Program-made: the position numbers and the translations under genes
Notes under the pieces: generated by a model
The model's input: only the letters and a program-made list of their open reading frames with translations
Database searches by the model: none
Told to the model about the DNA's origin: nothing
IMG/VR virus record: IMGVR_UViG_3300037488_003672
Source of the DNA: an uncultured virus (IMG/VR IMGVR_UViG_3300037488_003672)
Lineage: Duplodnaviria; Heunggongvirae; Uroviricota; Caudoviricetes
Length of the DNA stretch: 64,000 nt
Reading direction: 5' to 3' (one strand)
Part shown: positions 1 to 47,621 of the stretch, piece after piece
How the letters are laid out: every line of letters begins with the position of its first letter
How positions within the stretch are numbered: position 1 is the stretch's first letter

Positions 1-126
1 CGAACCCAAGAAAGAAGCAATCGAACCCAAGAAAGAAGCAATCGAACCCAAGAAAGAAGCAATCGAACCCAAGAAAGAAGCAATCGAACCCAAGAAAGAA
101 GCAATCGAACCTAAGAAAGAAGCAAT
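1..126 (+). repeat. 21-bp tandem repeat x6, coding EPKKEAI
   Basis: cgaacccaagaaagaagcaat repeated; last unit has one substitution. Confidence 0.95.
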
Positions 127-23871: not shown

Positions 23872-26253
23872 ATGAAGTACATATTCGGCAATAACAACGT
23901 GAAAATCGTGGGAGATTCAGCTTCCGATATTGACGTGATTAATAAATTAATGAAATATCTCGAAAAGAACAATTATTATATTACAATTGAAAAATTAAGT
24001 GAAATTTACTCTTCATTATTCTTAACCGATTCTTTAGGTGTAAGGGGTTGTATTCTAAAAGGATTAGCTGGGACTGGGAAAACAAAGTTAGCAGAGTTAA
24101 TTTGTAGTTTCTTCGTTTGGGATTCAATCTATTTTCAAGCTACTTATGGATTAATGGAAGATCAACTGTTATATGATTATATTCCCTCTGAAGAAACCAA
24201 GTCGGGATTTAAAATGATCGAAGGAAAATTAGTACGAGCATTACAACAATCAAAGAACAAACCTACCATGCTAACAATTGATGAATGGGATAAGACTAAT
24301 CCCAATTTAGATTCGGTCTTATTAGATTTTCTTCAGAATGCACGTTTATCATTAGGAAATACCACTTTTGAAGGAACGAAAGAAAACCTTCGGGTAATAA
24401 TTATTTCTAATGATGAAAGACCTTTTTCAAATCCACTCATAAGACGATTGCCATCTATTGAATTACCAATTCCTTCATTGGATATGGTTCGAAAATTCTT
24501 GATCAAAACTTTTGGAAAAGAAAACGCCTATATCGAACCGACCTTACGCCTTTATGAAATAACTCAACTCTGTACTTTAGATCGTAATATTACAATTCAA
24601 GAATTAACCCAATTCATCTCAGCCATTCAATTATTAACCGATGAGAAAACAAAAGTTTCAATGTTAGACTGGGGGGATTTAATCTATATTTATATTGCTA
24701 AAAACGAATATAATTTCAATTTGATCCAAGAAAAATCAGAGTTATTAAAAACGAAAAAACAATTAGAAATAATAAGAAACGAAAAATTACGCAAGATTGA
24801 AATAGAACCTTATGCAAAACTTGAAGAATATACAATTAAAGGCGAAAAGGAAAAACAAACTGAAATTCCTACTGCTGAAACAAGTGAAATTCCTATTGTA
24901 GAATCCAAAGCACTTCCGAAAAATATCCTTCCTCAAACTATCTTTACCATGCCGATCAAAATCGAAAGTTCGCTTAAATTGTCAGAAGAAATACCTCAAT
25001 CTGATAAAAAAGAAATTCAAATCGTAATAAAACGATTAGGTTTAGGGATATTAATCAATCCCGATAACGATTTTAAGATTACACCAAGCGAAGACAAAAG
25101 TTTTTTTGAATTGACGCTTGATACTCAAAAATGTTATTTTTCAGTTACTAATGAATTTATCATGAGTTTTGATCAATTTCCATTAAAATTATATTTGATT
25201 GCTGATGGTAGATTTCGATTCCCAGATATAATTAAGGATATTTCACCTTATTTGATTGCGGGGACTTTTGTTTTTTCGGGAACTCCTCGCTTAACTAATG
25301 AAAACATTCTAAGATTGAAAGATATATTCAAAAACTCAAAATTAGCAACTTATTCTCAAAAAGAGATTCTTCTTATTGGAGAAGAATTCTCGCTTCTTAT
25401 TTCTTATGTAGACAATAAGACATTCTTATGGATTTCCGATGGACAAACTTTTTCAGAAAGCCAACATAATCTAAATTACACATTTCAAATGACCATTACT
25501 GAAAAGGAATTACTCGAAGAACAAATGAATGCAAAGAAGATCAAAGAAGAGACATCTAAGAAAGAAATGGAAGAAAAAGAAAATCAATTAACAAAAGAAG
25601 AAGCAAAGAAGAAAGAAACGGAAGAAAAGGAACAATTGGCTTTAAAAATAAAAGAATTAAATGAACAAATTAATAAAAAAGGGAAGATACCTCTTAAAGT
25701 GCAGCTAACACAAGACTTTTCGAATACTACTGCGAAAATAGTACTTATAGATACTTTAGAAAGTTCTTTAGATGTGTCAATTCAATATGCCGAATTAATT
25801 CTTAATCATGAAAAAGAACTACTTACAAGAATTCCTAATATAATACAAGAAATACATACGATTATTCCCTATTTATATGATGTTAAACTATTTATTGAAA
25901 GCAAAACGGATGCCTTTAACCTTATGGAGTTTAGAAGGGAAAATTCGAATAACATATTTAATGAAATATTTGCAATACATTTTGAGTCTTGTCAATATAT
26001 AACATTTGACTTATGGAAATCCCTTAGATTTAACGATCCTAAACAAGAAACCAAACAAGAAACCAAAGAAGAAACCAAAGAAGAAACCAAAGAAGAAGAC
26101 GAAAAGATCGATGAACAAAAAACCATGAGTTTAAATAAATTAAACCATCAATTTTTTGATAATCTTATTTTAGAAATCATTAAAAAAACGAAGAAAGAAA
26201 CGAAGAATAAAATTAAGAATAAAACCGAACAAATATTCAAAAAGGGGAAATAA
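23872..26253 (+). CDS. MoxR-type AAA+ ATPase with long C-terminal extension
   Basis: Walker A GLAGTGKT, Walker B LTIDEWDK, LLDFLQ, ISNDER...LIRR; followed by a vWA gene. Confidence 0.85.
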   Translation: MKYIFGNNNVKIVGDSASDIDVINKLMKYLEKNNYYITIEKLSEIYSSLFLTDSLGVRGCILKGLAGTGKTKLAELICSFFVWDSIYFQATYGLMEDQLLYDYIPSEETKSGFKMIEGKLVRALQQSKNKPTMLTIDEWDKTNPNLDSVLLDFLQNARLSLGNTTFEGTKENLRVIIISNDERPFSNPLIRRLPSIELPIPSLDMVRKFLIKTFGKENAYIEPTLRLYEITQLCTLDRNITIQELTQFISAIQLLTDEKTKVSMLDWGDLIYIYIAKNEYNFNLIQEKSELLKTKKQLEIIRNEKLRKIEIEPYAKLEEYTIKGEKEKQTEIPTAETSEIPIVESKALPKNILPQTIFTMPIKIESSLKLSEEIPQSDKKEIQIVIKRLGLGILINPDNDFKITPSEDKSFFELTLDTQKCYFSVTNEFIMSFDQFPLKLYLIADGRFRFPDIIKDISPYLIAGTFVFSGTPRLTNENILRLKDIFKNSKLATYSQKEILLIGEEFSLLISYVDNKTFLWISDGQTFSESQHNLNYTFQMTITEKELLEEQMNAKKIKEETSKKEMEEKENQLTKEEAKKKETEEKEQLALKIKELNEQINKKGKIPLKVQLTQDFSNTTAKIVLIDTLESSLDVSIQYAELILNHEKELLTRIPNIIQEIHTIIPYLYDVKLFIESKTDAFNLMEFRRENSNNIFNEIFAIHFESCQYITFDLWKSLRFNDPKQETKQETKEETKEETKEEDEKIDEQKTMSLNKLNHQFFDNLILEIIKKTKKETKNKIKNKTEQIFKKGK

Positions 26254-26267
26254 AAATAACAAATCAC

Positions 26268-27656
26268 GTGAAAAAACAAATCAAATCATTCATTTTTTTC
26301 CAAAAATCAGATAATTCCATTCTCAACAAAATTAAAAAACCTAATTGGATTCAATCCTATTCCAATGTAAATTCCATCGAATTAGAAACAAATCAACCAA
26401 TTAATGAAAAAGAAGAACAAGAAGCAGATCAACCAATTGATGAAAAAGAAGAAGAAGAATTAAAATATAACGAAGAACCCGAAGAAAAACCATTAATGCC
26501 TTCAGAAAGCGAAACATCCGAAGATACTCATGGAGGATCGGAAATAACCGAATCAATAGAAACATCTCCTCCTCGGAAATCCACTGCAAAAAAAACATCT
26601 CAAGAAGAAGAATCTCAAGAAGAAGTATCTCAAGAAGAAGAATCCAAAGAAAAAGAATCTCAAGAAAAAGAATCTCAAGAAGAAGAATCCCAAGAAGAAG
26701 AATCTCAAGAAAAAGAATCTCAAGAAGAAGAATCCAAAGAAAAAGAATCTCAAGAAGAAGAATCTCAAGAAGAAGAATCCCAAGAAAAAGAATCCAAAGA
26801 AAAAGAATCTCAAGAAGAAGAATCCCAAGAAAAAGAATCCAAAGAAAAAGAATCTCAAGAAGAAGAATCCCAAGAAAAAGAATCTCAAGAAGAAGAATCC
26901 CAAGAAAAAGAATCTCAAGAAGAAGAATCTCAAGAAGAAGAATCCCAAGAAGAAGAATCTCAAGAAGAACCCAAAAATATAGGAAAACAAATTAAAGTGA
27001 GTTATGTTATTCCAAAAGAACTTCAAAATGCAACAGATCTTTCAAATCAAATCGTGAAATTATTTTATCAAGTATTGAATCGAATGATTAATTCTCAATG
27101 GCTACCAAAAGAACGAGGATTTTCGAGAATTTCAATGAATCGTGCAATGAAGCGAACAATTCATAAACAAGCTCCCAGTTATGCTTATTCTCTCCTTTCG
27201 ATTGATAAAATTAAATTGGTATTGGATAATTCGGGAAGTTGTCAAGAATACGCTGAATATTTAGCAGAGATCGGAAAAGGATTAATGAAATGGAATAATT
27301 TGGAATTATATTATAATGGAAATTTTGAACTTCATAGAGGTACGAAATATAATCGAAAGACAAAAAAAATGGATCAAATCAATCCAATGGTTGAAATATA
27401 CTCTCAAACCAATATTCCTATTATTTTTGTGGGGGATATTGATGGTATGGCAAATTTAGTTCAATTTTCTCGAATGAATCCGAAATTATTATGGATTAAC
27501 TTAGAACAACGTGAAGATTATGAAGATAATCCTTCTTCACATAGTTGGGTTAGAAGATACGAATATGCCGATTTTAAGGGTTATATGATTAAAGCTCCTA
27601 CCAAAAAAATATTACCTCAACAACTAACTCAATTATTGCGAACCATGCAAATCTAA
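26268..27656 (+). CDS. vWA-domain protein with long acidic repeat linker (MoxR partner)
   Basis: MIDAS-like LVLDNSGS and FVGD; GTG start lies within a CACGTG copy. Confidence 0.7.
   Translation: MKKQIKSFIFFQKSDNSILNKIKKPNWIQSYSNVNSIELETNQPINEKEEQEADQPIDEKEEEELKYNEEPEEKPLMPSESETSEDTHGGSEITESIETSPPRKSTAKKTSQEEESQEEVSQEEESKEKESQEKESQEEESQEEESQEKESQEEESKEKESQEEESQEEESQEKESKEKESQEEESQEKESKEKESQEEESQEKESQEEESQEKESQEEESQEEESQEEESQEEPKNIGKQIKVSYVIPKELQNATDLSNQIVKLFYQVLNRMINSQWLPKERGFSRISMNRAMKRTIHKQAPSYAYSLLSIDKIKLVLDNSGSCQEYAEYLAEIGKGLMKWNNLELYYNGNFELHRGTKYNRKTKKMDQINPMVEIYSQTNIPIIFVGDIDGMANLVQFSRMNPKLLWINLEQREDYEDNPSSHSWVRRYEYADFKGYMIKAPTKKILPQQLTQLLRTMQI
26598..26969 (+). repeat. 15-bp coding tandem repeat, about 25 units (SQEEE/SQEKE/SKEKE)
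   Basis: tcy maa gaa raa gaa units. Confidence 0.95.
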
Positions 27657-27776
27657 TTGAAATAAAAATAATAATTCACGTGAAAAAACATATTTTCATT
27701 TTTTTGACTTGTTTTAGTAAAGTATATATTACTAAAAAGAGAATTATATGTAACCAAAATTTTAATTGGTGACATT

Positions 27777-31091: not shown

Positions 31092-32705
31092 ATGGTACAA
31101 TTTAAATTTAATAAAGATGGAAATGCGTATGTTAATGATTTAGCAAAACATCCCAATTCCTTTATTCAAATTGGAGGCGATATTGCGTGGAAGTCCTATG
31201 GAGGTCTCTTTGCATGGTACGATCCAATTAATGAAACAGTAGCAGTTTATAACATCTCCGAGCTTACAGATGCTGAATTAGAAGGGAAATACTCTGTTGG
31301 TACTCAAACCTTTTATTTAGATGAATTTGAGTTTGATCTTAAACAATTAGGATTAGATAAAGTTCAAGATTTGAAATTGAGTCAAATTCTTCGAGAACAA
31401 GTGGGCATGTCTGGCTGTGATGACGAAGTTTATTGCGAAAAATGCAAATCTAAAGATAGAACTATCTTTCCAAATGCTGAAATGGTTGAAAGCCAGATTT
31501 TTGAAAAGGAAATTGTACATGGATTTGGTGAAATCGAACCCGATCAATTAATTATGCAATATTCGGATTCATTTAAACGAGCCAGATTCAAAAATCCTTC
31601 CGAAATTAATAAATATATTTTAGAAAATATTGTCTATCTGAAATTAGAAGGAACAGATCCAATCACCGATTGGTTCGCTTATTCGTTATTAATTACCAAT
31701 AATCGTATAAAAATCAATTGGGATAAGAAGAAAGAAGTCAATGCGTTAGGTGAATCCTTAAATTCAACCCAAAATTGTTATTATGATTTGAAAGAGAAAA
31801 AAATTGTTGCAATGCCGAAAGGTCATTCGGAAGAATCTTTACTTAATTCGCAAAAAGGCAAAACTCACGTGAAAACTTCAATCGTTGCAAAAAAGAGTTC
31901 TAAGAAAATCAGTACAAAGAAGCCCGAACCCACTAAAGTTATTCCAAAAAAGAGTTCCAAGAAAATCACTACAAAGAAGCCCGAACCTACTAAAGTAATT
32001 CCAAAAAAGAGTTCTAAGAAAATCAGTACAAAGAAGCCCGAACCCACTAAAGTTATTCCAAAAAAGAGTTCCAAGAAAATCACTACAAAGAAGCCCGAAC
32101 CTACTAAAGTAATTCCAAAAAAGAGTTCTAAGAAAGCTATTCCAAAACATTTCAAATGTGAATATATTAATGAATTGGATATTACTGTTCCAGACTTCAA
32201 AACCTTTAAAACCTTTAAAATGCAATTTGGGGTTTTGGTAACAAATCCTTATATCATCGACGGAGTATCCATTGTATTAGGAATACGGAAAGAAGATCTT
32301 GAGACTGTCCCTTATTTATTAGATCTTGAGACTGTTACTGTCGTTTATTTATTAGATCCTAACACTTTTGATGTAACTCCCGTAGATATACGTCTCATTA
32401 AAACAGTGAATAATGAAAAACCATTATCTGAAGAGAAAATGATTGATTTTATTAGTTTTGATCATGGTTTAGATTTTGAAAAAGAAGCAAAAATAAATTA
32501 TAAAAAAATAAAAGCCTTTCAAAAAGAACTTATGAAATGTGAGTATATTGATCTTATGGATCTTAAAAAATATCCTAAAGGTTATCGCTTGGAAAAGAGT
32601 TCCAAGAAAACCACTGCAAAGAACGAATCTACATCGGTGAAACCACTTACACTAAAAGAAAAACTATTACTTATGAAAAAAGAAAAAGAACCAAAGCGAA
32701 CCTAA
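31092..32705 (+). CDS. Hypothetical protein: MVQFKFNKDG N-terminus, Lys-rich repeats; partial paralog of ORF 47713
   Basis: ATG 31092; shared SDSFKR...EIN.YIL.NI.Y domain and KKSSKK repeats. Confidence 0.8.
   Translation: MVQFKFNKDGNAYVNDLAKHPNSFIQIGGDIAWKSYGGLFAWYDPINETVAVYNISELTDAELEGKYSVGTQTFYLDEFEFDLKQLGLDKVQDLKLSQILREQVGMSGCDDEVYCEKCKSKDRTIFPNAEMVESQIFEKEIVHGFGEIEPDQLIMQYSDSFKRARFKNPSEINKYILENIVYLKLEGTDPITDWFAYSLLITNNRIKINWDKKKEVNALGESLNSTQNCYYDLKEKKIVAMPKGHSEESLLNSQKGKTHVKTSIVAKKSSKKISTKKPEPTKVIPKKSSKKITTKKPEPTKVIPKKSSKKISTKKPEPTKVIPKKSSKKITTKKPEPTKVIPKKSSKKAIPKHFKCEYINELDITVPDFKTFKTFKMQFGVLVTNPYIIDGVSIVLGIRKEDLETVPYLLDLETVTVVYLLDPNTFDVTPVDIRLIKTVNNEKPLSEEKMIDFISFDHGLDFEKEAKINYKKIKAFQKELMKCEYIDLMDLKKYPKGYRLEKSSKKTTAKNESTSVKPLTLKEKLLLMKKEKEPKRT
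31890..32135 (+). repeat. 57-bp coding tandem repeat x4.3 (KKSSKKI[S/T]TKKPEPTKVIP)
   Basis: Alternating A/B units give a 114-bp super-period. Confidence 0.95.
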
Positions 32706-32733: not shown

Positions 32734-33102
32734 TTAAATTATTTTATTTACCTTTGATTGATAGGCAATTTGTCCCTTATAATCGACTTGCTCAATATCT
32801 CGATAATGATGAATTACTCGATTCATTAGATTATGAATATATTCATCTTTTTCATGAATCATATTATAGGATTTTATCAATAACACTGTCATAGGTTCTT
32901 TATATTGCATACTTTCAATAAAAAATTTATGAACTTTTCGAACTAAAATATCGTCAGATTCGGGGATTATTTCTTCGATTATTGGGATTATTATTGGCTT
33001 GGGAGTAAAATCAAGTATTATTTCATTCTCTTGACTCAAATCAAACAGAAAAGATTGAAAAACTAAGGCTTTTTGAGAATGATCTTTTTTTAAATCTGTC
33101 AT
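32734..33102 (-). CDS. Hypothetical protein
   Basis: 122-aa ORF with tatata box upstream. Confidence 0.6.
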   Translation of the reverse strand: MTDLKKDHSQKALVFQSFLFDLSQENEIILDFTPKPIIIPIIEEIIPESDDILVRKVHKFFIESMQYKEPMTVLLIKSYNMIHEKDEYIHNLMNRVIHHYRDIEQVDYKGQIAYQSKVNKII

Positions 33103-33270
33103 AATAAATAATAAAGAACTATTTTTACAATATATATCTTCCTTTCATTTTCCAATTTTGAATAAAATAATAATAACAATTTCACGTGAAAACTCATATC
33201 AATATTTCTTCTCCTTCTCTATCCAAAGATTTATATGCTTTTACTAAATAATCATAATAAGGTTTTTTTA

Positions 33271-33696
33271 ATGTGGAAATTTACTAAAATTGGAAAAGAA
33301 AAAGTGCAAAATGTGATGATCGGAGAAGATGATCGTTCTTGTCATCATACTAATGATGAAATATTTCATGTGGATGTGTTTGGATTAACCTTAACTCAAC
33401 ATATTGATATGAAACAAGCACATGCAGTAATGCTTGTCGAAGGAAAATTGTGGGATTCAGATGGAATTTCCACGCATGGAAAAAGTGCAAAACAAATCGC
33501 TGACGAAGGAACCGAAGCATTTAAGAAAGAAGGAATTTATAATCTCTTTGCATTTCATCCAGAATTATTGAAAAAGGAATATATCGACAATCTTGAACAA
33601 TGTCCGATGCTACATGATAACGATATGCGAGGAATTTCCGTAGTGACTTCGGATGGAATTTTTGATTTTTTGGGGAAGCAAAAGTCATCTAATTGA
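33271..33696 (+). CDS. Hypothetical protein (start probably ATG 33271, MWKFTKIG)
   Basis: ORF 33235..33696; aagg precedes 33271. Confidence 0.65.
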   Translation: MWKFTKIGKEKVQNVMIGEDDRSCHHTNDEIFHVDVFGLTLTQHIDMKQAHAVMLVEGKLWDSDGISTHGKSAKQIADEGTEAFKKEGIYNLFAFHPELLKKEYIDNLEQCPMLHDNDMRGISVVTSDGIFDFLGKQKSSN

Positions 33697-33708
33697 ATGT
33701 TAGATGAC
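33684..33708. terminator. Hairpin gtcatctaa-N7-ttagatgac overlapping a gene end
   Basis: Perfect 9-bp inverted repeat. Confidence 0.35.
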
Positions 33709-33733
33709 ATTTAATTAAAAAAATGGAGATGTA

Positions 33734-33997
33734 ATGAAAATGGATCATAAAAAAAGGGAAGATGTTGCTGAGTTTATTATAGATTTACTCAAAGAAAAGG
33801 AATTTTGGTCTTTTGAAGAGATCTTTGAAAAGCTTAAACTGAAAGATGTTTATACAATGAAAGAGATCGATAGAGTTCTTAACACTTTTATTTTAGCGGG
33901 ATGGGTTGCTCTAAATGATAAGGTCTATCATTTACTTAAAACAACCGAATATTATAACGAACAAACACACAAATACGAACTCTTAGATGACATTTAA
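33734..33997 (+). CDS. Small winged-helix-like protein
   Basis: SFEEIFEKL...EIDRVLNTF..AGWV. Confidence 0.6.
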   Translation: MKMDHKKREDVAEFIIDLLKEKEFWSFEEIFEKLKLKDVYTMKEIDRVLNTFILAGWVALNDKVYHLLKTTEYYNEQTHKYELLDDI

Positions 33998-34029
33998 TAA
34001 AAAATGGAAAAAAGCGAGGAATAAAAACG

Positions 34030-34395
34030 ATGGAAAACGAAATACCAGATAAAATTGCATTAGAAACAGAACAATGCGAAGATGAAATTATAAAAACAAC
34101 GAAAAAATTAAATGAATTAAACAAAAAATTATTAAATCTTCATATTTTAGGATTAGAACAAAAATTCAATCCTCACATTCTCCTAAGTTTGAAAATGCTT
34201 GGGGAAAGCGATGAAGATGGAATGCAAATAAATGGAATTGATTATTGGAATTATCTGGAAAAAATTAAAGTCGGAACCGTCATTTTAGTTAAAAAAATGG
34301 CTGATAATGATGATTTTTTTCCAATTTCATTAGGAATTTTAACAATTCTGAATCAAAAACCATTAAAATATAAATATGATATTTATTACAAATAA
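34030..34395 (+). CDS. Hypothetical protein
   Basis: gagg RBS; short N-terminal coiled coil. Confidence 0.65.
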   Translation: MENEIPDKIALETEQCEDEIIKTTKKLNELNKKLLNLHILGLEQKFNPHILLSLKMLGESDEDGMQINGIDYWNYLEKIKVGTVILVKKMADNDDFFPISLGILTILNQKPLKYKYDIYYK

Positions 34396-34487
34396 TTTTT
34401 TACTCTTTCTCTACCTTCCAAATTTACTCCTTCAAACGCACTAAAAACGCATTAAAAGTGGGGAAAAAAGTGCTTTTTTTCGGTTTT

Positions 34488-34586
34488 TTGAATTTAGTAA
34501 GGTAAATTAAAATCGAAAGGCAAAGTATGCGAAAATTTCAGTTAATATAAAGAAAAAAATAGAAAAATAATACTTCACGTGAAGAA
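34488..34586 (+). repeat. Direct repeat A, copy 1 (~99 bp; copy 2 at 35828..35927)
   Basis: ttgaatttagta...tacttcacgtgaagaa near-identical. Confidence 0.9.
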
Positions 34587-34689
34587 AATTTGTAATTAAA
34601 TTTGTAAACAATTACATGCATTATTTTAGCAGATTCAATTGAAGATTCATTTGTCTTATATGCAAGAATCATGCAAAATATTTGCATTA

Positions 34690-35565
34690 TTATTTCATAA
34701 ATCTTTGAAGGTTTGAAAATTGCCCTATTCGTTTTTTTATTATTGTTTTAAATTCTGGATTTATTTCAAATCCGATACTATTCCGTTTTAAATCTTTGGC
34801 TGCTCGACTCGTTGTCCCAGTACCAGCAAAAGGATCGAGAATTAAATCTCCAATAAAACTCCATAAAGTGATACATCTTTTAGGAATTTCAATTGGATAC
34901 GCTGCTGGATGTCCATCAACATGATCACCAGCAAATGACCAGATTTGAGATGTATATTCTTCCCACGTTTTTTTAGATATTTTAGATTGTTCTCTTATAT
35001 CTTGAGAACGAGAAATTGGTTTAGATTCGGGATTAGTTTTTTTTCTAAAAATCAAAACATATTCTATTTTTGATGAAACATGTGCACTTGGAGGATAGGG
35101 ATACGAACCAATAAAATTTAACGCAGATGTATGTTGTGCCGCCCCACCTCCAATTTTTTCCCACAATATTGCACCAAGATATTTAAAATTCTCTGATATT
35201 GCATCTTCAATTAAATAAGCATGAAGTGGAATCATCTCAAAATTACCTCTCAATTTTGGATCGGCTATTTCTCCAGATGGAACGGTTTTATCTCGGATAT
35301 TTACAATCATTCTTCTTGCTTCTTTTAAAACTCGAAAACATTCTCTAAAAACTTCTCTAATTTTTTCCCGATATTGTTCCATAGATTGTCCAAAACCTAT
35401 TTGGTTTTTATTTCCATAATCTTTCAAATTCCAATAAGGAGGAGATGTTATTATTAAATCTATTGATTCATTTTCAATTCTTTGTTTCATTCCTTCAATA
35501 CAATCTTGAAAATATATCTTCTGATTAGTGATTCCATCATTGATTTCAAAAAAATTTTCTTCCAT
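34690..35565 (-). CDS. Beta-class amino DNA methyltransferase (N4-C/N6-A)
   Basis: Motif IV ITSPPY before motif I LDPFAGTGTT; HPAAYP. Confidence 0.9.
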   Translation of the reverse strand: MEENFFEINDGITNQKIYFQDCIEGMKQRIENESIDLIITSPPYWNLKDYGNKNQIGFGQSMEQYREKIREVFRECFRVLKEARRMIVNIRDKTVPSGEIADPKLRGNFEMIPLHAYLIEDAISENFKYLGAILWEKIGGGAAQHTSALNFIGSYPYPPSAHVSSKIEYVLIFRKKTNPESKPISRSQDIREQSKISKKTWEEYTSQIWSFAGDHVDGHPAAYPIEIPKRCITLWSFIGDLILDPFAGTGTTSRAAKDLKRNSIGFEINPEFKTIIKKRIGQFSNLQRFMK

Positions 35566-35614
35566 ATTTAGCTACTCCTTGAATATAATCTAATAAAGAT
35601 TACTTAAATAAATA

Positions 35615-35827
35615 AAAAAATTTGAATTGGTTTTATCGATTGAAATTACTCGATTTAAACAGTTTAATAGATGCGTTATATTGTTGCTTAGATTAAACAC
35701 TCTTTTTTCTTCCCTTTAATCGAATTTTCTTCCCAATAAAATGATTTTTCTCTCGTTAAGTTAATTCAAACAAATAAAAACGCAATATTTTTCACAATCC
35801 CACAAAAAACAATCTTTCTTCACGTGA
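35615..35827 (+). repeat. Direct repeat B, copy 1 (~213 bp; copy 2 at 36790..37002); orphan 3' end of gene 36359..36871
   Basis: aaaaaatttgaattgg...ctttcttcacgtga near-identical. Confidence 0.9.
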
Positions 35828-35999
35828 TTGAATTTAGTAGGGGTAAATTAAAATCGAAAGGCAAAGTATGCGAAAATTTCAGTTAATATAAAGAAAAAAA
35901 TAGAAAAATAATACTTCACGTGAAGAATATCAATGGTATTATTTTCATAGATATCCCCAAATATTTAAATGTTTTTGAAATATTAATTGATCGATCATT

Positions 36000-36368
36000 A
36001 TGTTCAAATGTGAAAAATTAGGTAATTCAAGAATAGTTAATGTTGATCTGTGGGGGAATAAATTTTGGATAATAACCGATCCTATTGGTAAGAGTAGTGT
36101 TATTCAATATTTATGTCCTTTTTGTCATAGTGAACCAATTGATTCAATATGGAGTGAAAACAGAGTTTTAAATTGTGCAATGAAAGAGATTAATCCCGAA
36201 TATGCTCAGATTTGTGATCAATGTCAATTTATTTTATCTTATGATCATGAAAGTAAAAATGAAAGGGAATTTATTGGTCACTTAAAAGATATTTTTATAA
36301 ATTATAAACATAATTTTGACTGGATTGCCTATAATAAGCATAAAAAATCAATGAATTTATGGAAATGA
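36000..36368 (+). CDS. Zn-finger protein
   Basis: CPFC...CDQC. Confidence 0.65.
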   Translation: MFKCEKLGNSRIVNVDLWGNKFWIITDPIGKSSVIQYLCPFCHSEPIDSIWSENRVLNCAMKEINPEYAQICDQCQFILSYDHESKNEREFIGHLKDIFINYKHNFDWIAYNKHKKSMNLWK

Positions 36369-36871
36369 TTACAATGATAAAAGAAAGCCGAATAAATCGT
36401 CTTTTTCCTATGTTTAAGAAAAAAAGAGAAGAGATAAATTGCCTTGATCCAAACTCGGATCTAAAACAAATCGATAAAGAATTATCTATTGTTATTCCGT
36501 TATTGGATGAAATGATTCTTCTTCTGACGAAGCAAGAATCTTCTTCGGAAATGCAAAAATGGGAATTTACGAAAGAGAAAAAAAAAACCATTACTTTGAC
36601 TAACTATGATGAAAAAATCTCCGTTCTTTTGAAAATTTACGAAAGACTTGAAGAATATCAACTCAGTATTGAACAAGATTATGAAGTTCTTAATGTTTTA
36701 TTATTAAATATTATGCACAAAGAAACCATTATCAATGTGAATAACTTATATAAGCTTCGAGAAGCATTTCAGACTTGTTTTAATGAATCAAAAAATTTGA
36801 ATTGGTTTTATCGATTGAAATTACTCGATTTAAACAGTTTAATAGATGCGTTATATTGTTGCTTAGATTAA
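36359..36871 (+). CDS. Hypothetical helical protein
   Basis: 170-aa ORF. Confidence 0.65.
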   Translation: MEMITMIKESRINRLFPMFKKKREEINCLDPNSDLKQIDKELSIVIPLLDEMILLLTKQESSSEMQKWEFTKEKKKTITLTNYDEKISVLLKIYERLEEYQLSIEQDYEVLNVLLLNIMHKETIINVNNLYKLREAFQTCFNESKNLNWFYRLKLLDLNSLIDALYCCLD

Positions 36872-37072
36872 ACAATCTTTTTTCTTCCCTTTAATCGAAT
36901 TTTCTTCCCAATAAAATGATTTTTCTCTCGTTAAGTTAATTCAAACAAATAAAAACGCAATATTTTTCACAATCCAACAAAAAACAATCTTTCTTCACGT
37001 GAATTTTTACAATCTTAAACAAAAATCAACTAAACCCAATATTTATTATCTTAATTAATTATTATCTCATAT

Positions 37073-37345
37073 ATGAAAACAAATTTTAAATATCTTCAGC
37101 AGTTAATTGATGGAAAATGGTCATTCAAACTCACAAGTGAAGACTATAACACAAGAGAAGAAATGTTAGACGATTTAACTAAAATCACAATGTTTGTAAT
37201 TTCTAAAACAACGTATGAAGAAGAAAAAAAACCAATTCTAAACCAAATTTCCAGTATCTTTCGAAATCAAGATCATTGCATTAATAAACCAATCGATTTT
37301 GAAAGTCTTATCTTATCAAATGCTCACACATTTTCTGGAGAATAA
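37073..37345 (+). CDS. Small hypothetical protein
   Basis: 90-aa ORF downstream of motif and tttatta box. Confidence 0.6.
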   Translation: MKTNFKYLQQLIDGKWSFKLTSEDYNTREEMLDDLTKITMFVISKTTYEEEKKPILNQISSIFRNQDHCINKPIDFESLILSNAHTFSGE

Positions 37346-37368
37346 AATATAAAAAACGTGAAAAACTT

Positions 37369-37896
37369 ATGAATATGCAATTTATTAGCAGAAATGAAAA
37401 ATCAAGCGATCTCTGGGAGACTCCCCTTGATTTTTTTGAACCCCTTAATCGTGAATTTCACTTTACGTTAGACGCTTGTGCATCACATGAAAATCACCTA
37501 CTTCCCAAATATTTTACGATTGAAACTAACGGACTAATACAAAGCTGGGAAGGAGAATGTGTGTTTATTAATCCTCCTTTTTCCACATTCTCCGCATGGA
37601 TTGAAAAAGCCTATTTTGAATCGAAAAAAAACGATATCACCATTGTAATGATTATTCCTTCCCGAACTGATACAAAAGCGTGGCATAATTTTGCGATGAA
37701 AGCTAACCAAATTCGCTTTTGCATCCCCAGAGTTAATTTTTTATTAAATAAACAAAAAACTAAGAATGGATCGACCTTTCCCTTATCAATTATTGTCTTT
37801 CAACCCAATAAAAACCCCTATCCTTCGGTTTCAAGTTATTATTGGAAAGAACAATCAAAAAATCCGTTAAAAAAAGGAGACGTTTTCTTTTATTAA
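37369..37896 (+). CDS. Phage-type DNA N6-adenine methyltransferase (Dam-like family)
   Basis: WETP, FTLDACAS, VFINPPFS, PSRTDT motifs. Confidence 0.9.
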   Translation: MNMQFISRNEKSSDLWETPLDFFEPLNREFHFTLDACASHENHLLPKYFTIETNGLIQSWEGECVFINPPFSTFSAWIEKAYFESKKNDITIVMIIPSRTDTKAWHNFAMKANQIRFCIPRVNFLLNKQKTKNGSTFPLSIIVFQPNKNPYPSVSSYYWKEQSKNPLKKGDVFFY

Positions 37897-37970
37897 GAAA
37901 TCAAAAATCACGTGAATAACCACATGATAAAACCGTTAAATTAATATCTAACTGGTTTCTTAATTGTTTT

Positions 37971-38267
37971 ATGTCGGACAAATTATTTACCTTTTTTTCT
38001 AAAATTCATGATAACATCGAAATAACAACGATTCTCGAACAATTTACCATTTCCGAAATCGTTCTATTTCTCAATCAATTATCTACTGAAGTGTTTTTGA
38101 AAATCAAATGGAGTTCTAATGTTACGCTTAATTTAATTAAAGAATGCCTTCTCAAAAATTATAATTCTTCGATGAAAATTGAATTTACTGAAAAAGGAAA
38201 AAAACTACATAACGATCTAAAACTCATGGTAAAAAATCACGAACATATTCTTCTAAACATCGTTTAA
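37971..38267 (+). CDS. Winged-helix-like protein
   Basis: C-terminal IEFTEKGKKL wing motif. Confidence 0.55.
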   Translation: MSDKLFTFFSKIHDNIEITTILEQFTISEIVLFLNQLSTEVFLKIKWSSNVTLNLIKECLLKNYNSSMKIEFTEKGKKLHNDLKLMVKNHEHILLNIV

Positions 38268-38868
38268 ATTCGAATTGAAACTCTCTTTGAGCATGTAAAT
38301 TTCGAACTACTGCATCTAAATGTTCAATAAACTTTGTTTTTGGAACGCAAAGTACCAAAGGAAGAAAGGCTTGTTCGGACTCTTGAAATTCTCTCTCTTT
38401 TTGAAGTATGGTTTGCATCAACAATAATTGATGTTTTTCACTCAAGTTCTCATTGATTAGAACCCCAATCGCTTCGTTTCTTAAAATTAATTGATATACC
38501 GAACCAATATCTTCATTGGATATTCTTAAAGTGTCAAGTATATCACTCAATTTCAATTCTCCCTTTTGCTTCTGAAGAGCCATAATCGTTTTATAATGAT
38601 GACAAGTAGGATGGATCACTAAAACCATCTCATCATTTTCATGCCAGAAATACTTAAAAGGAAAAATACGACACAATAATGGTCGTTCCTCATAAATTGA
38701 ACATCGATTGTCTACTAAAAATTGACAAGGACTCTTCATTTGAATTAAAAAGGGATCTGCGTTATATTCGAATTGTTTCAATTTCTTCATCCGAACAAAC
38801 TCAAAAAAATGCAGATCAATATTTTCATGTTTTGTATTGCAACATGAACAACAATTTGAGCAATTCAT
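38224..38868 (-). CDS. YkgJ-family cysteine cluster protein
   Basis: CxxCxxCC, CQFL...CSIYEERPLLCRIFPF. Confidence 0.85.
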   Translation of the reverse strand: MNCSNCCSCCNTKHENIDLHFFEFVRMKKLKQFEYNADPFLIQMKSPCQFLVDNRCSIYEERPLLCRIFPFKYFWHENDEMVLVIHPTCHHYKTIMALQKQKGELKLSDILDTLRISNEDIGSVYQLILRNEAIGVLINENLSEKHQLLLMQTILQKEREFQESEQAFLPLVLCVPKTKFIEHLDAVVRNLHAQREFQFEFKRCLEEYVRDFLP

Positions 38869-38948: not shown

Positions 38949-39776
38949 TTAAATATGTTTTAAGAGTTTATAGAGTTGACGAATTTGTTTCTGTCCAAAT
39001 TTTATTTTATATTTTTTGATCAATTCCTCAAATTTATACGATCCTAAGAACAATTCTAACCAAATTGCTTCTTCTACTGTCCAGAACGAATAATTATCAA
39101 ACGATAATTCTTTTCGGTTCCTTCTCTCAAACACAGATTCTCCTTCCTTCAAAATCCGAGCATAATTTCGAGAAGCCCAAATATCTGCATAGAAATAATC
39201 ATAATGTTTCTCACTTTTATAATGAAAGAAATTGGCTTCTATCAAGTTCACTTTCGGATGGTTTGGGAAGAGTTCTTCATACATTTGAATTGCTAACGCA
39301 TCATTATCAATAACATCAATCGATAAAACCGATTCTTTTTCTTGTAATTGATTCACAATAAATCCTAAGCCTAAACCCGCAATCAATATATGACCATTTC
39401 CCCATAAAAACGGATTGATATGGGATTGTACTTCCATCGGACTAATTGACATATATAATTCTCCATCCAGATAGAGAACGGGATATTTCATATTCTCGTT
39501 TAAAATCGTATCATTTGAGAGGTAAAAATCAAACTTATTTCCAGACTCAAAATTTAGTATATCAATCTCCGCAAAATCTCGCTCAACTTTCCGATATTGT
39601 TTTGAAATCGCATTACAAAAATCAGCATATATTCGTTGATCAGTGAACAAACCTTTTTTTAATTCTCGCAATAAATCCGAAATTAACGGTTTTCGTTGAG
39701 TAAAAATCTTAGGCGTTATAGATGCTTGAAACGATTCTCTCTCTCCATCGTTTTGAAATCGAAATTTCTTAATCAT
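38949..39776 (-). CDS. Class I SAM-binding fold protein (spermidine-synthase/methyltransferase-like)
   Basis: ILIAGLGLG, IDVID, YDYFYADIW; N-terminus MIKKFRFQNDG. Confidence 0.7.
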   Translation of the reverse strand: MIKKFRFQNDGERESFQASITPKIFTQRKPLISDLLRELKKGLFTDQRIYADFCNAISKQYRKVERDFAEIDILNFESGNKFDFYLSNDTILNENMKYPVLYLDGELYMSISPMEVQSHINPFLWGNGHILIAGLGLGFIVNQLQEKESVLSIDVIDNDALAIQMYEELFPNHPKVNLIEANFFHYKSEKHYDYFYADIWASRNYARILKEGESVFERRNRKELSFDNYSFWTVEEAIWLELFLGSYKFEELIKKYKIKFGQKQIRQLYKLLKHI

Positions 39777-39797: not shown

Positions 39798-39912
<115 letters not shown>

Positions 39913-40084: not shown

Positions 40085-40203
40085 TCTTTTTTTCGCTTTT
40101 ATTTCGAACCTTGCATCGAAGTATTTATTTTTTATTTATTTATTTATTTGGTTTATCATTCATAAAAAGATAATTTTTTTAACTTTCTCATTGAAGTTTA
40201 ATT

Positions 40204-42106: not shown

Positions 42107-42463
42107 ATGAAAATAATTACTGTTAATCTTCCGATAACCTTTCTTAAAATTATCGAAGGTTATGTCGGAGAAGGTAATCTGTATCCTTCTCGAAGTGAGC
42201 TATTCCGAGTTGCAATTCGTGAATTTCTCATTAAAGAATTAAATGACGTGGAGAATCAACAATTATTAGAAGCAAAAAATCTCCAAAAAAAAGCAATAAT
42301 TCCCGATCTTGATTTAGATGCAATTATAATCAACAATACTCGCTCTGAAGTCATGAAAAAAGTCATAAAAAAAGATTTAGAAAAAACCAATAAAAACATT
42401 TCATCAATCAATAAGATCACAATCAATACTCAAACTTCAAAATCTGGAGGAGAATGGGATTGA
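42107..42463 (+). CDS. CopG/ribbon-helix-helix transcriptional regulator
   Basis: MKIITVNLP...LYPSRSELFRVAIREFL. Confidence 0.85.
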   Translation: MKIITVNLPITFLKIIEGYVGEGNLYPSRSELFRVAIREFLIKELNDVENQQLLEAKNLQKKAIIPDLDLDAIIINNTRSEVMKKVIKKDLEKTNKNISSINKITINTQTSKSGGEWD

Positions 42464-43828: not shown

Positions 43829-44350
43829 TTAAAAATAATCTTGCTGATAAACTAAATCAAATCGCTTTTTCGCAACTTCATAATCCGATTCATTATATAC
43901 CCAACTTTCGACAATTTTTCCAAAATTCTTAGTCGCAACCATATAGGTCTTTGAGTTTGAATCAAATGACAAGACCAATAAAACATTATGATTTAAAAAG
44001 CGATATTCGATTAATTCTTTCGAAGGGGCATCCGTTTTGGTTGCGACGGGAGATTTATTTTGTAATTCGCTTACAAAACTATAAGATAAAAACATAAAAA
44101 GATAGTTATATATTTGACTTTGATTAGATCCCGTTTCATATTTCAGTATATTTTGAGCCAAATCATATATTTCTTCTTCAGTAATGATAACATAGGTAGA
44201 ATCAACGCTCATTTGATCATTTATCTTTCTTGCTAATGGGGTTGTAGCTAATTGTGAATATGACCAAATGGCATTAGAATATGCACAATAATCGTCAGAT
44301 GGATAAACTGATACAAAAGACGATATATCTAAAATATTTACTTGTTTCAT
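43829..44350 (-). CDS. Hypothetical protein
   Basis: 173 aa, divergent from 44425; its first ~14 codons recur at 46107..46147. Confidence 0.7.
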   Translation of the reverse strand: MKQVNILDISSFVSVYPSDDYCAYSNAIWSYSQLATTPLARKINDQMSVDSTYVIITEEEIYDLAQNILKYETGSNQSQIYNYLFMFLSYSFVSELQNKSPVATKTDAPSKELIEYRFLNHNVLLVLSFDSNSKTYMVATKNFGKIVESWVYNESDYEVAKKRFDLVYQQDYF

Positions 44351-44517
44351 ATTTTACTCTTCCGCGTGAAAGTTTATATTCATTAGGATCACATTTTTTA
44401 TTAAACATTCTAATGTGAAGAAAAATGGTAAAATTTGAATTTAATCAAGATGGAAGCGTCAAAAATATCTCTCAGACAAATATCTCCGCAAATAAATCGC
44501 CAGAAGATTCTAAATTA
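44310..44517 (+). repeat. Promoter plus leader-peptide cassette, copy 1 (copy 2 at 46107..46325; partial copy 3 at 47648..47741)
   Basis: Near-identical DNA spanning the motif, TATA-like box and MVKFEFNQDGSVK codons. Confidence 0.9.
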
Positions 44518-46005
44518 TTTATGAATAAAATATATGATTATATTGTTATTGGTATGGGATTAAGTGGATTATCTTGTGCCTTAAAATTAACACAAAAATA
44601 TCCTCAAAAATCAATATTATGCTTAGAGCAAAATGATCAAGTCGGGGGTTATGCTGTCAATTTTAAAAGAAAGGATTTTAGATTTGAAGTATCTCTTCAT
44701 TATTGCGGAAAACCAATGAAAAATTCAATTAACGAATTAAATTTGACTGATATTTCTTTAATTGAATGTCCAATTTGGAAAGAATCCATTATTAAAGACA
44801 AACATTATTTTTACTCATGGAATCATCTGGAATATCAAAAAACACTTTCAGAACAATTCCCCCTCGAAAAAGAAAACTTAGAGCGATTCTTTGGTGAAAA
44901 CATGGCAATTGCCCCCTTCTTAGCTGAATTTGCAACAAAGGGTGGTATTAAAAAATTTTATTATAGCTTAAAAAATATATCCAAACTGATGAAAGTCAAA
45001 GATTTAGTTAAACTAAATGCAAAAGAGTTATTGGATCAATATTTTCAAGATCAAAAATTAAAAACAGAGTTATTCTCTCTCGCATCTTATTTTGGTTCTA
45101 CTCCAGAAGTATTAAGTGCAATTATATATATCGCATCTGTTCTCAATATGTTTTGTCAAGGTTCATATTATATTAAAGGGGGTTCTGAAGCATTAACACG
45201 ATCTATGGCAAATCATATTAAACAAAATAATGGAACTATCGAGCTAAATGCCAAAGTGAATGAAATTATTGTAATCAATAATCAAATTAATACCATAAAA
45301 TATGTTCAAAACAAAATTTCGCATGAAATTAAGGGAAAAAAAATTATTTTTGCGGGGGATATTCATAATTTAATGGAAAATATAATTCATCAAACCATAC
45401 TTGATTCTAAAGTAAATATTCTTCAATTAACCAATATAAACAAAAAATCAATTGTTGAAGCCATATTTGAAGTTTGGATCGGATTAGATATTGCATTAAA
45501 AGATTTCAACTTACCTAATTATGCTACTGAAATCGAAACACAATCGGGTAAATTCTATTTCACGAACTATTCTAATATTGATGCTACTTGTTCCCCTCAA
45601 GGAACATCTGCGATCACATTATTAAAAATTACAACGATAGATAAATTTGAAGAAGCTGTGAAATTGGATGGAAATAAGCGAGGAAAAAACTACTATCACC
45701 TAAAGGAAGAAGAAACAAAAAAAATGGTTGATGAATTTATTAATGTCTTGAAAACATATATCCCCGACATTAAAAATCATATCAAAGTTATTGAAAGTGC
45801 ATCTCCAATCACTATGAAACGCTATACCTCTAATTATCGAGGTTCATTTGGGGGATTTCAACCATCACATGAAAACATGATTAAAAACCCCATCCCGAAT
45901 GAAACCCCAATCCCTAATCTATTTCTTTTATCACAATGGGTTGGATTTGGAGCTGGTTATGAGATGACTATTCGTAATGGATTAGAATTAGCAAAAAAAA
46001 TATAA
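44425..46005 (+). CDS. FAD-dependent oxidoreductase, phytoene desaturase (CrtI)-like, with 32-aa N-terminal extension
   Basis: YDYIVIGMGLSGL, LEQNDQVGGY..F.RKDFRFEVSLH, SPITMKRYT...G, TPIPNLFL. Confidence 0.85.
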   Translation: MVKFEFNQDGSVKNISQTNISANKSPEDSKLFMNKIYDYIVIGMGLSGLSCALKLTQKYPQKSILCLEQNDQVGGYAVNFKRKDFRFEVSLHYCGKPMKNSINELNLTDISLIECPIWKESIIKDKHYFYSWNHLEYQKTLSEQFPLEKENLERFFGENMAIAPFLAEFATKGGIKKFYYSLKNISKLMKVKDLVKLNAKELLDQYFQDQKLKTELFSLASYFGSTPEVLSAIIYIASVLNMFCQGSYYIKGGSEALTRSMANHIKQNNGTIELNAKVNEIIVINNQINTIKYVQNKISHEIKGKKIIFAGDIHNLMENIIHQTILDSKVNILQLTNINKKSIVEAIFEVWIGLDIALKDFNLPNYATEIETQSGKFYFTNYSNIDATCSPQGTSAITLLKITTIDKFEEAVKLDGNKRGKNYYHLKEEETKKMVDEFINVLKTYIPDIKNHIKVIESASPITMKRYTSNYRGSFGGFQPSHENMIKNPIPNETPIPNLFLLSQWVGFGAGYEMTIRNGLELAKKI

Positions 46006-46223
46006 GATTTAATTTTTCCAATTTGTGAATAAGTTCCAAAGACAATTAATTGCCGATTCTAAACAACATTTTTTTATCCAATTGTCCGATTCTGTAATTA
46101 CTAAAAGATACAAAAGACGATATATCTAAAATATTTACTTGTTTCATATTTTACTCTTCCACGTGAAAGTTTATATTCATTAGGATCACATTTTTTATTA
46201 AGAAATCCTATTTGTGAAGAAAA

Positions 46224-47621
46224 ATGGTAAAATTTGAATTTAATCAAGATGGAAGCGTCAAAAACATCTCTGAGACACAAGATTCTTCCCCTTCGGTAAA
46301 TAAATCGCCAGAAGATTCTAAATTAGATCGATCCTTTGTCGATTCATTCATTCGTAATAATATTAAAGATATTTATTATGATTTAGATTTAAGAATCCTT
46401 TATTATGCGAAAGGAAAAAGACATTATCAACCTATTGTTTCTCTATTAACTCCAATTGAAAATGTTCTAATCATAAGCAATCGTGCATTTGATACATTGA
46501 TTAAACCATTCTTAGAGATTTATCCTTCTTATCTTAACGATAGTAATAGTTTCGACCATTTTTTTGGAAAATTGGATATTCATATTAACCCTCTATTCAA
46601 ATATGCAAATTTTAACGATATTTTTGAAAAAGAAAAAGAAGAAAAAGAAATTGAATACGGAGAAGAAGAAATTGAATATGGTGAGTTCTATAACTCGAAG
46701 ATCCATCTTGTTTTAGGTGAAGAAAAGAAACCCACTAAGAAGACTTCCAAGAAAAGCACACCTAAGAAGACCACAGCAAAGAAGACCACAGCAAAGAAAC
46801 CCACTAAGAAGACTTCCAAGAAAAGCACACCTAAGAAGACCACAGCAAAGAAACCCACTAAGAAGACTTCCAAGAAAAGTACTGCACTAAACACAGTAGA
46901 AACCATATACTTAGGAAATTGTGAATTAATTGATACTATTTTTTCTAAAGAAGTGAGTTCAAAAGAAGAAATTGCTAATACTAAAAAAGACCTCCCCGAA
47001 TATATCAAAGAATTTCAAAGATGGGGGATATTCTGGAAAATAAAAGAAGACGATCATCAATTTGAAATTCAAGAAACACTTCTTCAATTAGCAACGGAAA
47101 AAACTTTATCTCAAAATTATATCCTTGTCTATGATCTTTCAACGAAAGGACAAGAATCAGAAGACTTTATGGGAATTATTGTGAATCGGAAATCAGAAGA
47201 GATAAAAATAGAAATGAAGATAATTGAAAAGATACAAACTCGATTAGAAATTGATAAAATAATTAGGCAAAAAATTAAACACATATATTATAATAATGAA
47301 CTAAAAATGGTCTTCCTCCTCCTTAGAAAAGCTGAAGATAATGAATTTGTATTTAGACCTTTACTTTCAATAGTAGTACCGATTGAAAATGACGATATTA
47401 TTGTAAATAAAAAGATTAAAGAGACCAAATTCTCTCCATTTTTACCAAACTATCCCCAATATCTCGAAGATCCCAATGGTCTTGATCATTATTTTAGATA
47501 TTGGAAAATTAATGCAGAGCCTTATCCGAATCCAATAAAGGAGATTACTTATGATGTTTATTCTAAACAGATTCTCCCTCAAATTAAGCACACTTATGAA
47601 CAATTCGAAGATTTTTTTTAA
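46224..47621 (+). CDS. Hypothetical protein: MVKFEFNQDG leader, duplicated domain, H1-like Lys/Thr-rich linker
   Basis: Two copies of an IR..IK.IYY...PIEN...PFL..YP.YL.D.N..DH.F domain. Confidence 0.8.
   Translation: MVKFEFNQDGSVKNISETQDSSPSVNKSPEDSKLDRSFVDSFIRNNIKDIYYDLDLRILYYAKGKRHYQPIVSLLTPIENVLIISNRAFDTLIKPFLEIYPSYLNDSNSFDHFFGKLDIHINPLFKYANFNDIFEKEKEEKEIEYGEEEIEYGEFYNSKIHLVLGEEKKPTKKTSKKSTPKKTTAKKTTAKKPTKKTSKKSTPKKTTAKKPTKKTSKKSTALNTVETIYLGNCELIDTIFSKEVSSKEEIANTKKDLPEYIKEFQRWGIFWKIKEDDHQFEIQETLLQLATEKTLSQNYILVYDLSTKGQESEDFMGIIVNRKSEEIKIEMKIIEKIQTRLEIDKIIRQKIKHIYYNNELKMVFLLLRKAEDNEFVFRPLLSIVVPIENDDIIVNKKIKETKFSPFLPNYPQYLEDPNGLDHYFRYWKINAEPYPNPIKEITYDVYSKQILPQIKHTYEQFEDFF
46725..46883 (+). 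repeat. Coding repeats KKPTKKTSKKSTP / KKTTA
   Basis: aagaaacccactaagaagacttccaagaaaag x3. Confidence 0.9.

Follow-up and report, generated by a model that had tools for sequence, protein, structure and literature searches.

A frequent CACGTG palindrome, likely an upstream promoter site, and duplications around a methyltransferase gene in an element probably hosted by Asgard archaea

The uncultured virus record IMG/VR IMGVR_UViG_3300037488_003672 is a single contig of 119,250 bp with a G+C content of 29.4%, and the 64,000-nt stretch analysed here (the window) is its first part; positions are those of the window unless given as genome positions. The virus record carries direct terminal repeats, and since a reading frame continues through the 107-bp terminal repeat, the molecule is likely circular. 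No match to a capsid, portal or terminase was obtained among its open reading frames (ORFs) in scans with Pfam (134 of ~137 ORFs) and PHROGs (65 ORFs), and for this reason it is called an element here. The palindrome CACGTG occurs 43 times in the window (2229-63913), where it likely serves as an element-specific upstream promoter site, and it also stands at some of the ends of duplicated blocks that surround a methyltransferase gene between 34488 and 37002. An earlier note on this DNA had taken CACGTG for a site of recombination or cleavage at which gene cassettes begin and end, in a loosely integron-like manner.

The locus is laid out as A1, methyltransferase, B1, A2, two genes and B2, and stringent self-BLAST returned exactly the coordinates that the earlier note had assigned to these parts. 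The two copies of block A (34488-34586 and 35828-35927) are 98% identical, and those of block B (35615-35827 and 36790-37002; 213 bp) are 99.1% identical, with two substitutions. A1 is a copy of a conserved non-coding module; it lacks the motif at its left end and closes on the right in a CACGTG at 34576-34581, with A1/A2 identity extending 5 nt past the core. It is followed by an inserted segment of 1028 bp (34587-35614), free of the 4-mers that the element avoids, which encodes on the minus strand an orphan N6/N4 DNA methyltransferase of 291 aa (34690-35565; PF01555, E 1e-44), preceded by AAGGAG (35575-35580, minus strand), Shine-Dalgarno-like in sequence. B1 is an orphan copy of the last 26 codons and the 3' flank of ORF 36359-36871, as the earlier note had it, and its left end lies in A-rich microhomology without a motif. 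At the B1/A2 junction (35821-35835, plus strand) the motif and one further nucleotide are followed by A, and alignment bore out that A2, a copy truncated on the left, begins directly after the CACGTGA at 35821; it closes in CACGTG at 35917-35922. The two plus-strand ORFs that follow encode a Cys-containing protein of 122 aa (36000-36368), with near-identical variants in other assemblies, and a protein of 170 aa (36359-36871), with a near-identical variant in another assembly; neither has a Pfam, NCBIfam or PHROG match. B2, the parent copy of B, ends in CACGTG at 36996-37001. Between copies, exact identity extends over at most 100 bp in B and 86 bp in A, and the methyltransferase is letter-identical in the JGI/IMG and Logan assemblies, which lends the assembly indirect support.

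Over the whole circle CACGTG occurs 79 times against 4.0 expected, a 20-fold excess in a sequence in which most other palindromes are avoided; within the window the expectation is 1.9 and the maximum in 100 shuffles was 5. All but two of the 79 sites (77) read YCACGTGR, and 58 are intergenic in an element whose DNA is 87% coding. The information content around CACGTG is at most 0.22 bits past ±2 nt, and the core is near-invariant, as one-mismatch 10-mers number 3 with the core altered and 29 with the core kept. Among variants one mismatch away, YCATGTGR/YCACATGR, in which T replaces the inner C, is over-represented in intergenic DNA (8 found, 0.67 expected, masked count), and the other such variants are not. 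Copies of this variant lie at 3899, 37921, 41224 and 51476 in the window and at genome positions 69853, 82111, 87161, 95233 and 102603, and four of them stand 59-92 nt ahead of a start codon; the enrichment fits tolerance by a binding protein and decay of a methylated C alike. Loci of the host lineage totalling 1.2 Mb contain 44 copies of CACGTG where 31 are expected, and the genome of Promethearchaeum syntrophicum MK-D1 has 4 copies of TTCACGTGAA; by such counts the motif is specific to the element and rare in host-lineage chromosomes. A host regulon using TTCACGTGAA was considered and rejected: five of 161 class genomes hold 22-49 copies, and the sampled sites are mostly in long open frames and without TATA phasing (10 of 34 intergenic in class genomes G004 and G012).

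The intergenic palindromes are placed like promoter elements. A start codon lies 50-100 nt away from 39 of the 58 intergenic sites, compared with 23% of random intergenic positions (P 1e-12), and the motif is found 35-100 nt upstream of 51 of 94 genes that head a run but of only 4 of 43 tightly linked genes. Of 45 gene-facing sides, 14 have TTTAWA at +46..49, compared with 3 of 87 that are non-facing and 1 of 26 that belong to internal sites (Fisher P 1.8e-5); this bin was picked on the same 45 gene-facing flanks, the control sides playing no part in the choice. In 22 of the 45 gene-facing flanks a motif search located a BRE/TATA-like element at the same offset, and in 6 it lay about one helical turn (~ten bases) further on. 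At the focal locus, TTTAAA (35964-35969, plus strand) lies 47 nt after the motif at 35917 and forms the predicted promoter of ORF 36000, and TTTATT (37042-37047, plus strand) lies 46 nt after the motif at 36996 and forms that of ORF 37073. The succession of site, TATA-like box and ATG is the geometry of an archaeal upstream activator or factor site; passages of PMC7830388 describe archaeal activators that bind palindromes upstream of BRE/TATA. The likely function of YCACGTGR is to bind a dimeric protein, which would activate the archaeal promoters of the element. Candidates for this protein are the ribbon-helix-helix (RHH) protein encoded at 42107, winged-helix ORFs with weak Pfam matches and a TFB-like ORF.

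The breakpoints at the focal locus show a looser relation to the palindrome. The simplest parental arrangement is A, gene, gene, B, since A2 and B2 each run on to the right into an intact promoter (35964 and 37042), and of the four ends of the parent sequence two (the right ends of A and B) are at the motif and two (the left ends) are not. The earlier claim that all copies of A and B end at or near CACGTG thus stands for the right ends, where identity runs 1 nt (B) and 5 nt (A) past the core, but it had counted each breakpoint twice, and the left ends are free of the motif; that of A lacks it in A1 and also in the older copies at genome 65708 and 109352. At the A1/insert junction (34586), a run of identity 5 nt past the core is seen in 3% of unrelated site pairs, and the break therefore probably fell outside the palindrome. 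The insert/B1 junction (~35604-35615) lies within the coding sequence of gene 36359, at the A-rich microhomology. At the B1/A2 junction (35827) the motif is on the B side only and is followed by 4 extra nt; the right end of B2 and the left end of A1 both hold TGAATTT, a 7-bp microhomology, and the sequence after every other CACGTG site in the genome departs from A2 (best match 12 of 20 nt). Because this junction joins motif to non-motif, it is not the product of palindrome-by-palindrome excision, which would join motif to motif, and because the palindrome is kept whole it was not cleaved at its centre. The proposal that the B-A junction is what integration of a circularised A..B unit would leave is partly retained, in that the layout is compatible with the integration of a small circle, or with a template switch, though not with a circle joined motif to motif.

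Other recent duplications in the element provide a measure of how far breakpoints favour the motif. With tandem arrays and the transitive pair 44365/47651 excluded, stringent self-BLAST gave eight recent repeat pairs (at least 39 bp and at least 95% identity; 16 ends), of which five have no motif at either end. Four of these five flank an inserted piece: block C around an oxidoreductase gene, the nested pairs genome 92261/93199 and 92341/93107 in the methyltransferase cluster, and 39798/40160, a 43-bp exact direct repeat (39798-39840 and 40160-40202) around a 319-bp piece with no motif within 850 nt. The fifth, genome 98500/98566, is a near-tandem within a gene. Block C (44310-44517 and 46107-46325, plus strand, spanning 44310-46325) serves as a control event; it begins 53 nt upstream of a motif that reads CGCGTG in the first copy. 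These four flanked insertions indicate that insertion with a flanking direct repeat is the element's usual way of gaining DNA and that the motif is not needed for it. Block D (46159-46252 and 47648-47741, plus strand, spanning 46159-47741; 98.9% identity) contains a promoter and the first codons of a MVKFEFNQDG leader, and promoter-plus-leader blocks of this kind are common to the unrelated genes 44425, 46224, 47713 and 31092. Its identity begins 1 nt before the core, at CCACGTG, as had been claimed. Of the four blocks that bear a motif, three end no more than 5 nt from its core (P ~0.003). The suggestion that duplication ends favour the motif is therefore upheld by 3 of the 16 ends (P 0.0015-0.04), and is limited by the five of eight pairs with no motif end; the bias is real, modest and non-obligatory.

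Two further observations touch on this question. A 32-bp, 94% identical, motif-centred direct repeat of low complexity (26247-26278 and 27659-27690) surrounds the single gene 26268-27656 and comes nearest to suggesting a motif-by-motif unit. Genes 36000 and 36359 each have a variant on a 1087-bp contig, the same size as the span 35916-37002 (motif to motif plus one base on each side), which is probably a coincidence.

The account that we consider rather probable is that the palindrome is a promoter-activator site and that the locus records one methyltransferase insertion by short-homology recombination, two of whose four ends were drawn to sites without needing them. A dimeric factor would bind YCACGTGR and activate the adjacent promoter. 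The methyltransferase would have entered from a sibling element by short-homology recombination, either as a small A-methyltransferase-B circle integrating through A or by a template switch during replication, with A duplicated in the process. Ends at the edge of a site could arise where a bound protein halts a fork or a nuclease; alternatively, the site with its AT-rich flanks may be the commonest short homology in the genome. The 1028-bp insert contains none of the avoided 4-mers. This is also true of 112 of 116 tiles of the element but of just 3 of 1109 from the host lineage, which suggests that the insert was donated by a sibling element or has long been resident; its closest homologues in the 161 class genomes reach 44% identity, and the donor was not found among these genomes.

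Several observations weigh against this account. Thirteen sites lie deep within genes, in all three frames and without a TATA box behind them, and there are 11 internal copies of YCACGTGR against 0.9 after codon shuffling. The spacing of sites is slightly too even (coefficient of variation 0.59; P 0.013-0.07), and a clean TTTAWA within the +46..49 bin is present on no more than about one third of gene-facing sides. A promoter role alone predicts neither that both focal breakpoints separate a site from its own TATA box nor that 3 of 16 recent repeat ends fall within 5 nt of a core (P=0.0015 genome-wide; P ~0.04 under a rough, intergenic-only null with ~10 intergenic ends). The top eight motif-anchored similar pairs all show one-sided similarity, and the six in which the A family takes part are not independent; the old one-sided pairs of this family are attributable to selection on a module that ends at the site. 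Finally, in a pair of vWA-like genes (54591-54791 and 55781-55981), a 92.5% identical tract within 72% identical paralogues stops on the internal motif at 55980, an ambiguous case that is possibly the end of a gene conversion or merely a mismatch caused by the motif.

A bolder reading is that of a site with two uses, where one element-encoded protein would both activate about half of the promoters and fix where DNA ends are joined, so that genes move between sibling Asgard elements in promoter-edged units. This is doubtful, but if true it would be an archaeal, promoter-carrying counterpart of integron cassettes, in which short protein-bound double-stranded sites replace attC hairpins, and it would use a code resembling the E-box (CACGTG, with CATGTG tolerated) in the lineage nearest to eukaryotes. 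About equally unlikely is a genome-organising or self-marking role resembling that of HIP1, in which the site is methylated or bound by a chromatin or partition protein, intergenic position reflects tolerance and the breakpoints are a side effect. Such a role would account for the 20-fold excess amid the avoidance of most other palindromes, for the same 8-mer in all three frames of coding sequence and for the even spacing; the seven matches to DNA methyltransferases, and the enrichment between genes of just the inner C-to-T variant, as decay of a methylated C would give, are also in its favour. Tolerance alone, however, would not fix a gene-facing distance to TATA-like boxes, and work on HIP1 itself found no gene-regulatory role for it (PMC5861425). 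Moreover, no C5 methyltransferase was found in the element, its CpG is not depleted (ratio 1.14), and Pfam gave no ParB match among 134 of its proteins.

That the focal tandem is an assembly chimera of two alleles (A-methyltransferase-B and A-gene-gene-B) from a mixed population is quite improbable. Near-identical variants of genes 36000 and 36359 do occur on 901- and 1087-bp contigs in other assemblies, and the copies of A and B differ by just 1-2%, but a two-allele bubble gives no B-to-A junction with 4 new bases, no exact repeat exceeds 100 bp, similar flanked insertions occur elsewhere in the element, and an artefact at this locus would leave the genome-wide motif untouched. Equally hard to credit is the site-specific cassette system of the earlier note, in which a tyrosine recombinase would cross over at CACGTG and excise or insert motif-bounded units. 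The near-invariant core, the many sites 0-30 nt after a stop codon, the three repeat ends at motifs and the one-sided similarity around motifs would all suit it, as would an intact tyrosine recombinase in the element. The junctions do not: B1/A2 joins motif to non-motif, methyltransferase/B1 lies inside a gene, and the right end of A is 5 nt past the core (chance 3%). Together with the uncleaved palindrome and the lack of hairpins and conserved arms (below), they leave the view of the palindrome as a recombination or cleavage site without support.

The earlier note had called for a search of the full element for tyrosine and serine recombinases, which found the tyrosine recombinase (genome 76403-77512; intact, Xer-like) and no serine resolvase. 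The protein keeps its catalytic residues and belongs to a small clade of relatives at 41-59% identity. Its profile scores are 157 bits for XerC and 80 bits for integron integrase, both under the cut-off, and its best solved relatives by profile are XerD and XerA, with IntI4 lower. Fold comparison gave Z scores of 14.8 for XerH, 14.4 for XerA and 13.0 for IntI4 (root-mean-square deviation 8-10, from a modest model). An extra domain around patch III defines IntI (passages of PMC9668308), and the recombinase carries, ahead of patch III, its own helical insertion. By score it appears closer to Xer than to IntI, and the fold ranking leaves XerH, XerA and IntI4 within 2 Z units; resolution of dimers of the circle would be its simplest role. 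The core sites of Xer/dif systems consist of conserved 11-bp inverted arms around a 6-8-bp spacer. Conserved arms of the dif type are not present at CACGTG sites: no arm complementarity extends beyond ±2 nt over 66 boundary sites, and one site in 79 has 10 of 11 complementary arm positions, with 19 such AT-rich repeats genome-wide. An AT-rich 11-6-11 inverted repeat just upstream of the recombinase gene (genome 77518-77545; L001:14018-14045) is a weak candidate for its target.

Integron cassettes are mostly promoterless and co-oriented and are arrayed beside intI/attI. Here the genes have their own TATA-like boxes and face both ways; the 78 intervals between sites comprise 37 with plus-strand genes, 16 with minus-strand genes, 14 mixed and 11 empty, the sites are spread round the whole circle, and one lies within the recombinase gene itself. 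No attC-like hairpin was found at the 8 of 79 sites folded as DNA (z -1.5 to +0.5), nor was there an Rfam match at the gathering score. The focal junctions are not site-by-site, being one-sided at B1/A2, motif-free at methyltransferase/B1 and 5 nt past the core at A1/methyltransferase. The likeness to integrons, archaeal and Asgard ones included (passages of PMC9668308), is that the replicon encodes a tyrosine recombinase, has palindromic sites repeated between its genes and may form a circular intermediate; it ends with the absence of attC hairpins and of an array by the recombinase gene, the junction structure, the genes' own promoters and a recombinase that scores nearer to Xer. On the features tested, the element is not an integron.

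Among known systems, the element would seem to work most like the PeSL modules of the T4-type phages RB49 and phi1, which consist of a sigma70 promoter and a terminator stem-loop, and for which PeSL-by-PeSL mini-circles were shown by inverse PCR (passages of PMC2839356). In both cases a promoter module is repeated between the genes of a large mobile genome, insertions are flanked by copies of the module, and homology appears to suffice for gene shuffling with no dedicated integrase. Unlike PeSLs, the modules here have just 8-10 bp in common, an archaeal promoter and no stem-loop, and the focal junctions are not module-by-module, although block D may be; in the region 33000-38500, sigma70-like sites (32 against 30.7 expected) and terminators (3 against 2.0) are not in excess. 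Another parallel is with the archaeal activators CopR of Pyrococcus furiosus, whose motif lies directly upstream of BRE in a small regulon, and Ptr2 of Methanocaldococcus jannaschii (passages of PMC7830388). In these systems, as in the element, several genes have a palindrome ahead of the core promoter at a constant spacing. The difference from CopR is that here the core starts 46-49 nt before the TATA-like box, marks about half of the run-heading genes element-wide and is also found within genes.

HIP1 (GCGATCGC) of cyanobacteria is an 8-bp palindrome that is 15-300-fold over-represented, loosely tied to recombination and to orphan methyltransferases (PMC5861425 and PMC4390886). The element resembles it in having an over-represented palindrome in and between genes (20-fold here, 79 against 4.0, and 11 against 0.9 deep in genes), but here the palindrome is mostly intergenic, phased to TATA-like boxes and on a mobile element, whereas HIP1 is chromosomal and has no regulatory role found. 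HIP1-type periodicity without regulation does not describe the element, in which promoter phasing is strong and evenness reaches only P 0.013-0.07.

The E-box of eukaryotic bHLH-ZIP proteins is CACGTG, with CATGTG as a tolerated variant. In what is likely an Asgard setting, the element has this core with an identical TCACGTGA extension, and the one variant that it tolerates is also that of the E-box. No match to the bHLH family PF00010 was found in six frames of the element, and for a look-alike ORF (genome 71948-72280) a model built from its single sequence consisted of four helices and matched nothing in the PDB at E 0.001. The resemblance is likely convergence or C-to-T decay.

The probable host was approached through the RHH protein (42107-42463, plus strand). 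Among the 80 loci listed, its nearest relatives from genomes are mostly assigned to Promethearchaeota and other Asgard groups, so the host is likely an Asgard archaeon, probably of the Promethearchaeota. A 20-kb locus from a record titled Patescibacteria (L193) has an Asgard-type RHH protein, an exonuclease 41% identical to ORF 23272 and similar methyltransferases, and lacks the motif; it is possibly a mis-binned Asgard element of another family. The gene content of the element includes seven DNA-methyltransferase matches (N6/N4-type), two AAA ATPases, an XPB-like helicase, the tyrosine recombinase and a TFB-like protein. The latter, a two-cyclin-fold protein of 197 aa (genome 80983-81576; L001:17483-18073) that is shorter than a full TFB, has a TM score of 0.67 to TFIIB clusters, and its model offers a lead towards an element-specific initiation factor. 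TFB occurs in other Asgard viruses (passages of PMC13700489), so the gene is not new in kind. Many short words are avoided over the whole element (observed/expected: CCGG 0/90, GCGC 0/46, GGCC 0/67, CGCG 1/62, CTAG 3/163, GAATTC 7/93), CAGG is present once, and 30 of the 64 palindromic hexamers are absent; this avoidance and the seven methyltransferase matches suggest heavy restriction pressure from the host.

Relatives were found at the protein level, with recombinases at 41-59% and AAA proteins at 30-43% identity, and siblings lie on contigs of 34,191 and 67,493 bp. Searches for relatives' DNA, in sets from which very near records may be left out, gave no usable match in viral contigs (with gene 36359, the AAA ATPase, an A-core pattern, the recombinase, a promoter pattern, RHH and P0221) or in genome contigs (with the recombinase, the oxidoreductase and the promoter pattern). 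A scan of metagenome contigs returned one locus, L134, a chance match that does not resemble the element. The AAA alignment had one match, at 23% identity and without the motif, in the 161 class genomes, and the recombinase alignment had none at E 1e-45 in 400 phylum genomes. In the open-access literature, including passages of PMC13700489 and PMC11529989, we found no report of this motif or of a replicon-wide promoter code in archaeal or Asgard mobile elements. With one strict 8-bp site, which precedes roughly half of the transcription units and is uncommon in the chromosomes of the host lineage, together with few candidate binders and a TFB-like protein of its own, the element opens this idea to direct test. 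Should sibling genomes show the breakpoint bias too, it would follow that gene acquisition in archaeal elements can be steered by a site for a transcription factor, as it is by PeSLs in T4-type phages.

Module A has further copies at genome 65708-65838 and 109352-109469 and a decayed copy near genome 117262. It is a non-coding stretch of ~100-150 bp to the left of the motif (34396-34586, 35828-35927, L001:2076-2340 and L003:7760-8100); its three full copies lie just 3' of a plus-strand gene and have a TATA-like box at +29/30 leftwards, with no protein gene for it to drive. The module has no Rfam match as a structured RNA, and the consensus fold of three sequences is weak and AT-driven; it may be a small-RNA promoter or a protein-binding site.

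At genome 91642-93401 (L002:9142-10901) a methyltransferase gene is split into N- and C-terminal pieces by a second methyltransferase, with nested direct repeats of 71 and 56 bp and no motif. Several proteins contain lysine- and glutamate-rich tandem repeats (1-126, 26597-26969, 31888-32135, 46724-46878 and 48166-48301), and a 57-bp tandem-repeat unit is common to genes 31092 and 47713. Nineteen of 137 ORFs start with M-x(0-2)-[KQI]-[FY]-x-[FILV] (e.g., MKFVF, MKYIF and MVKFEF) and encode proteins that are otherwise unrelated; they include the window ORFs 10371, 23872, 29144, 29752, 31092, 38949-39776, 44425, 46224 and 47713, plus ten more. The shared start may be a targeting or packaging leader that has spread together with the promoter modules.

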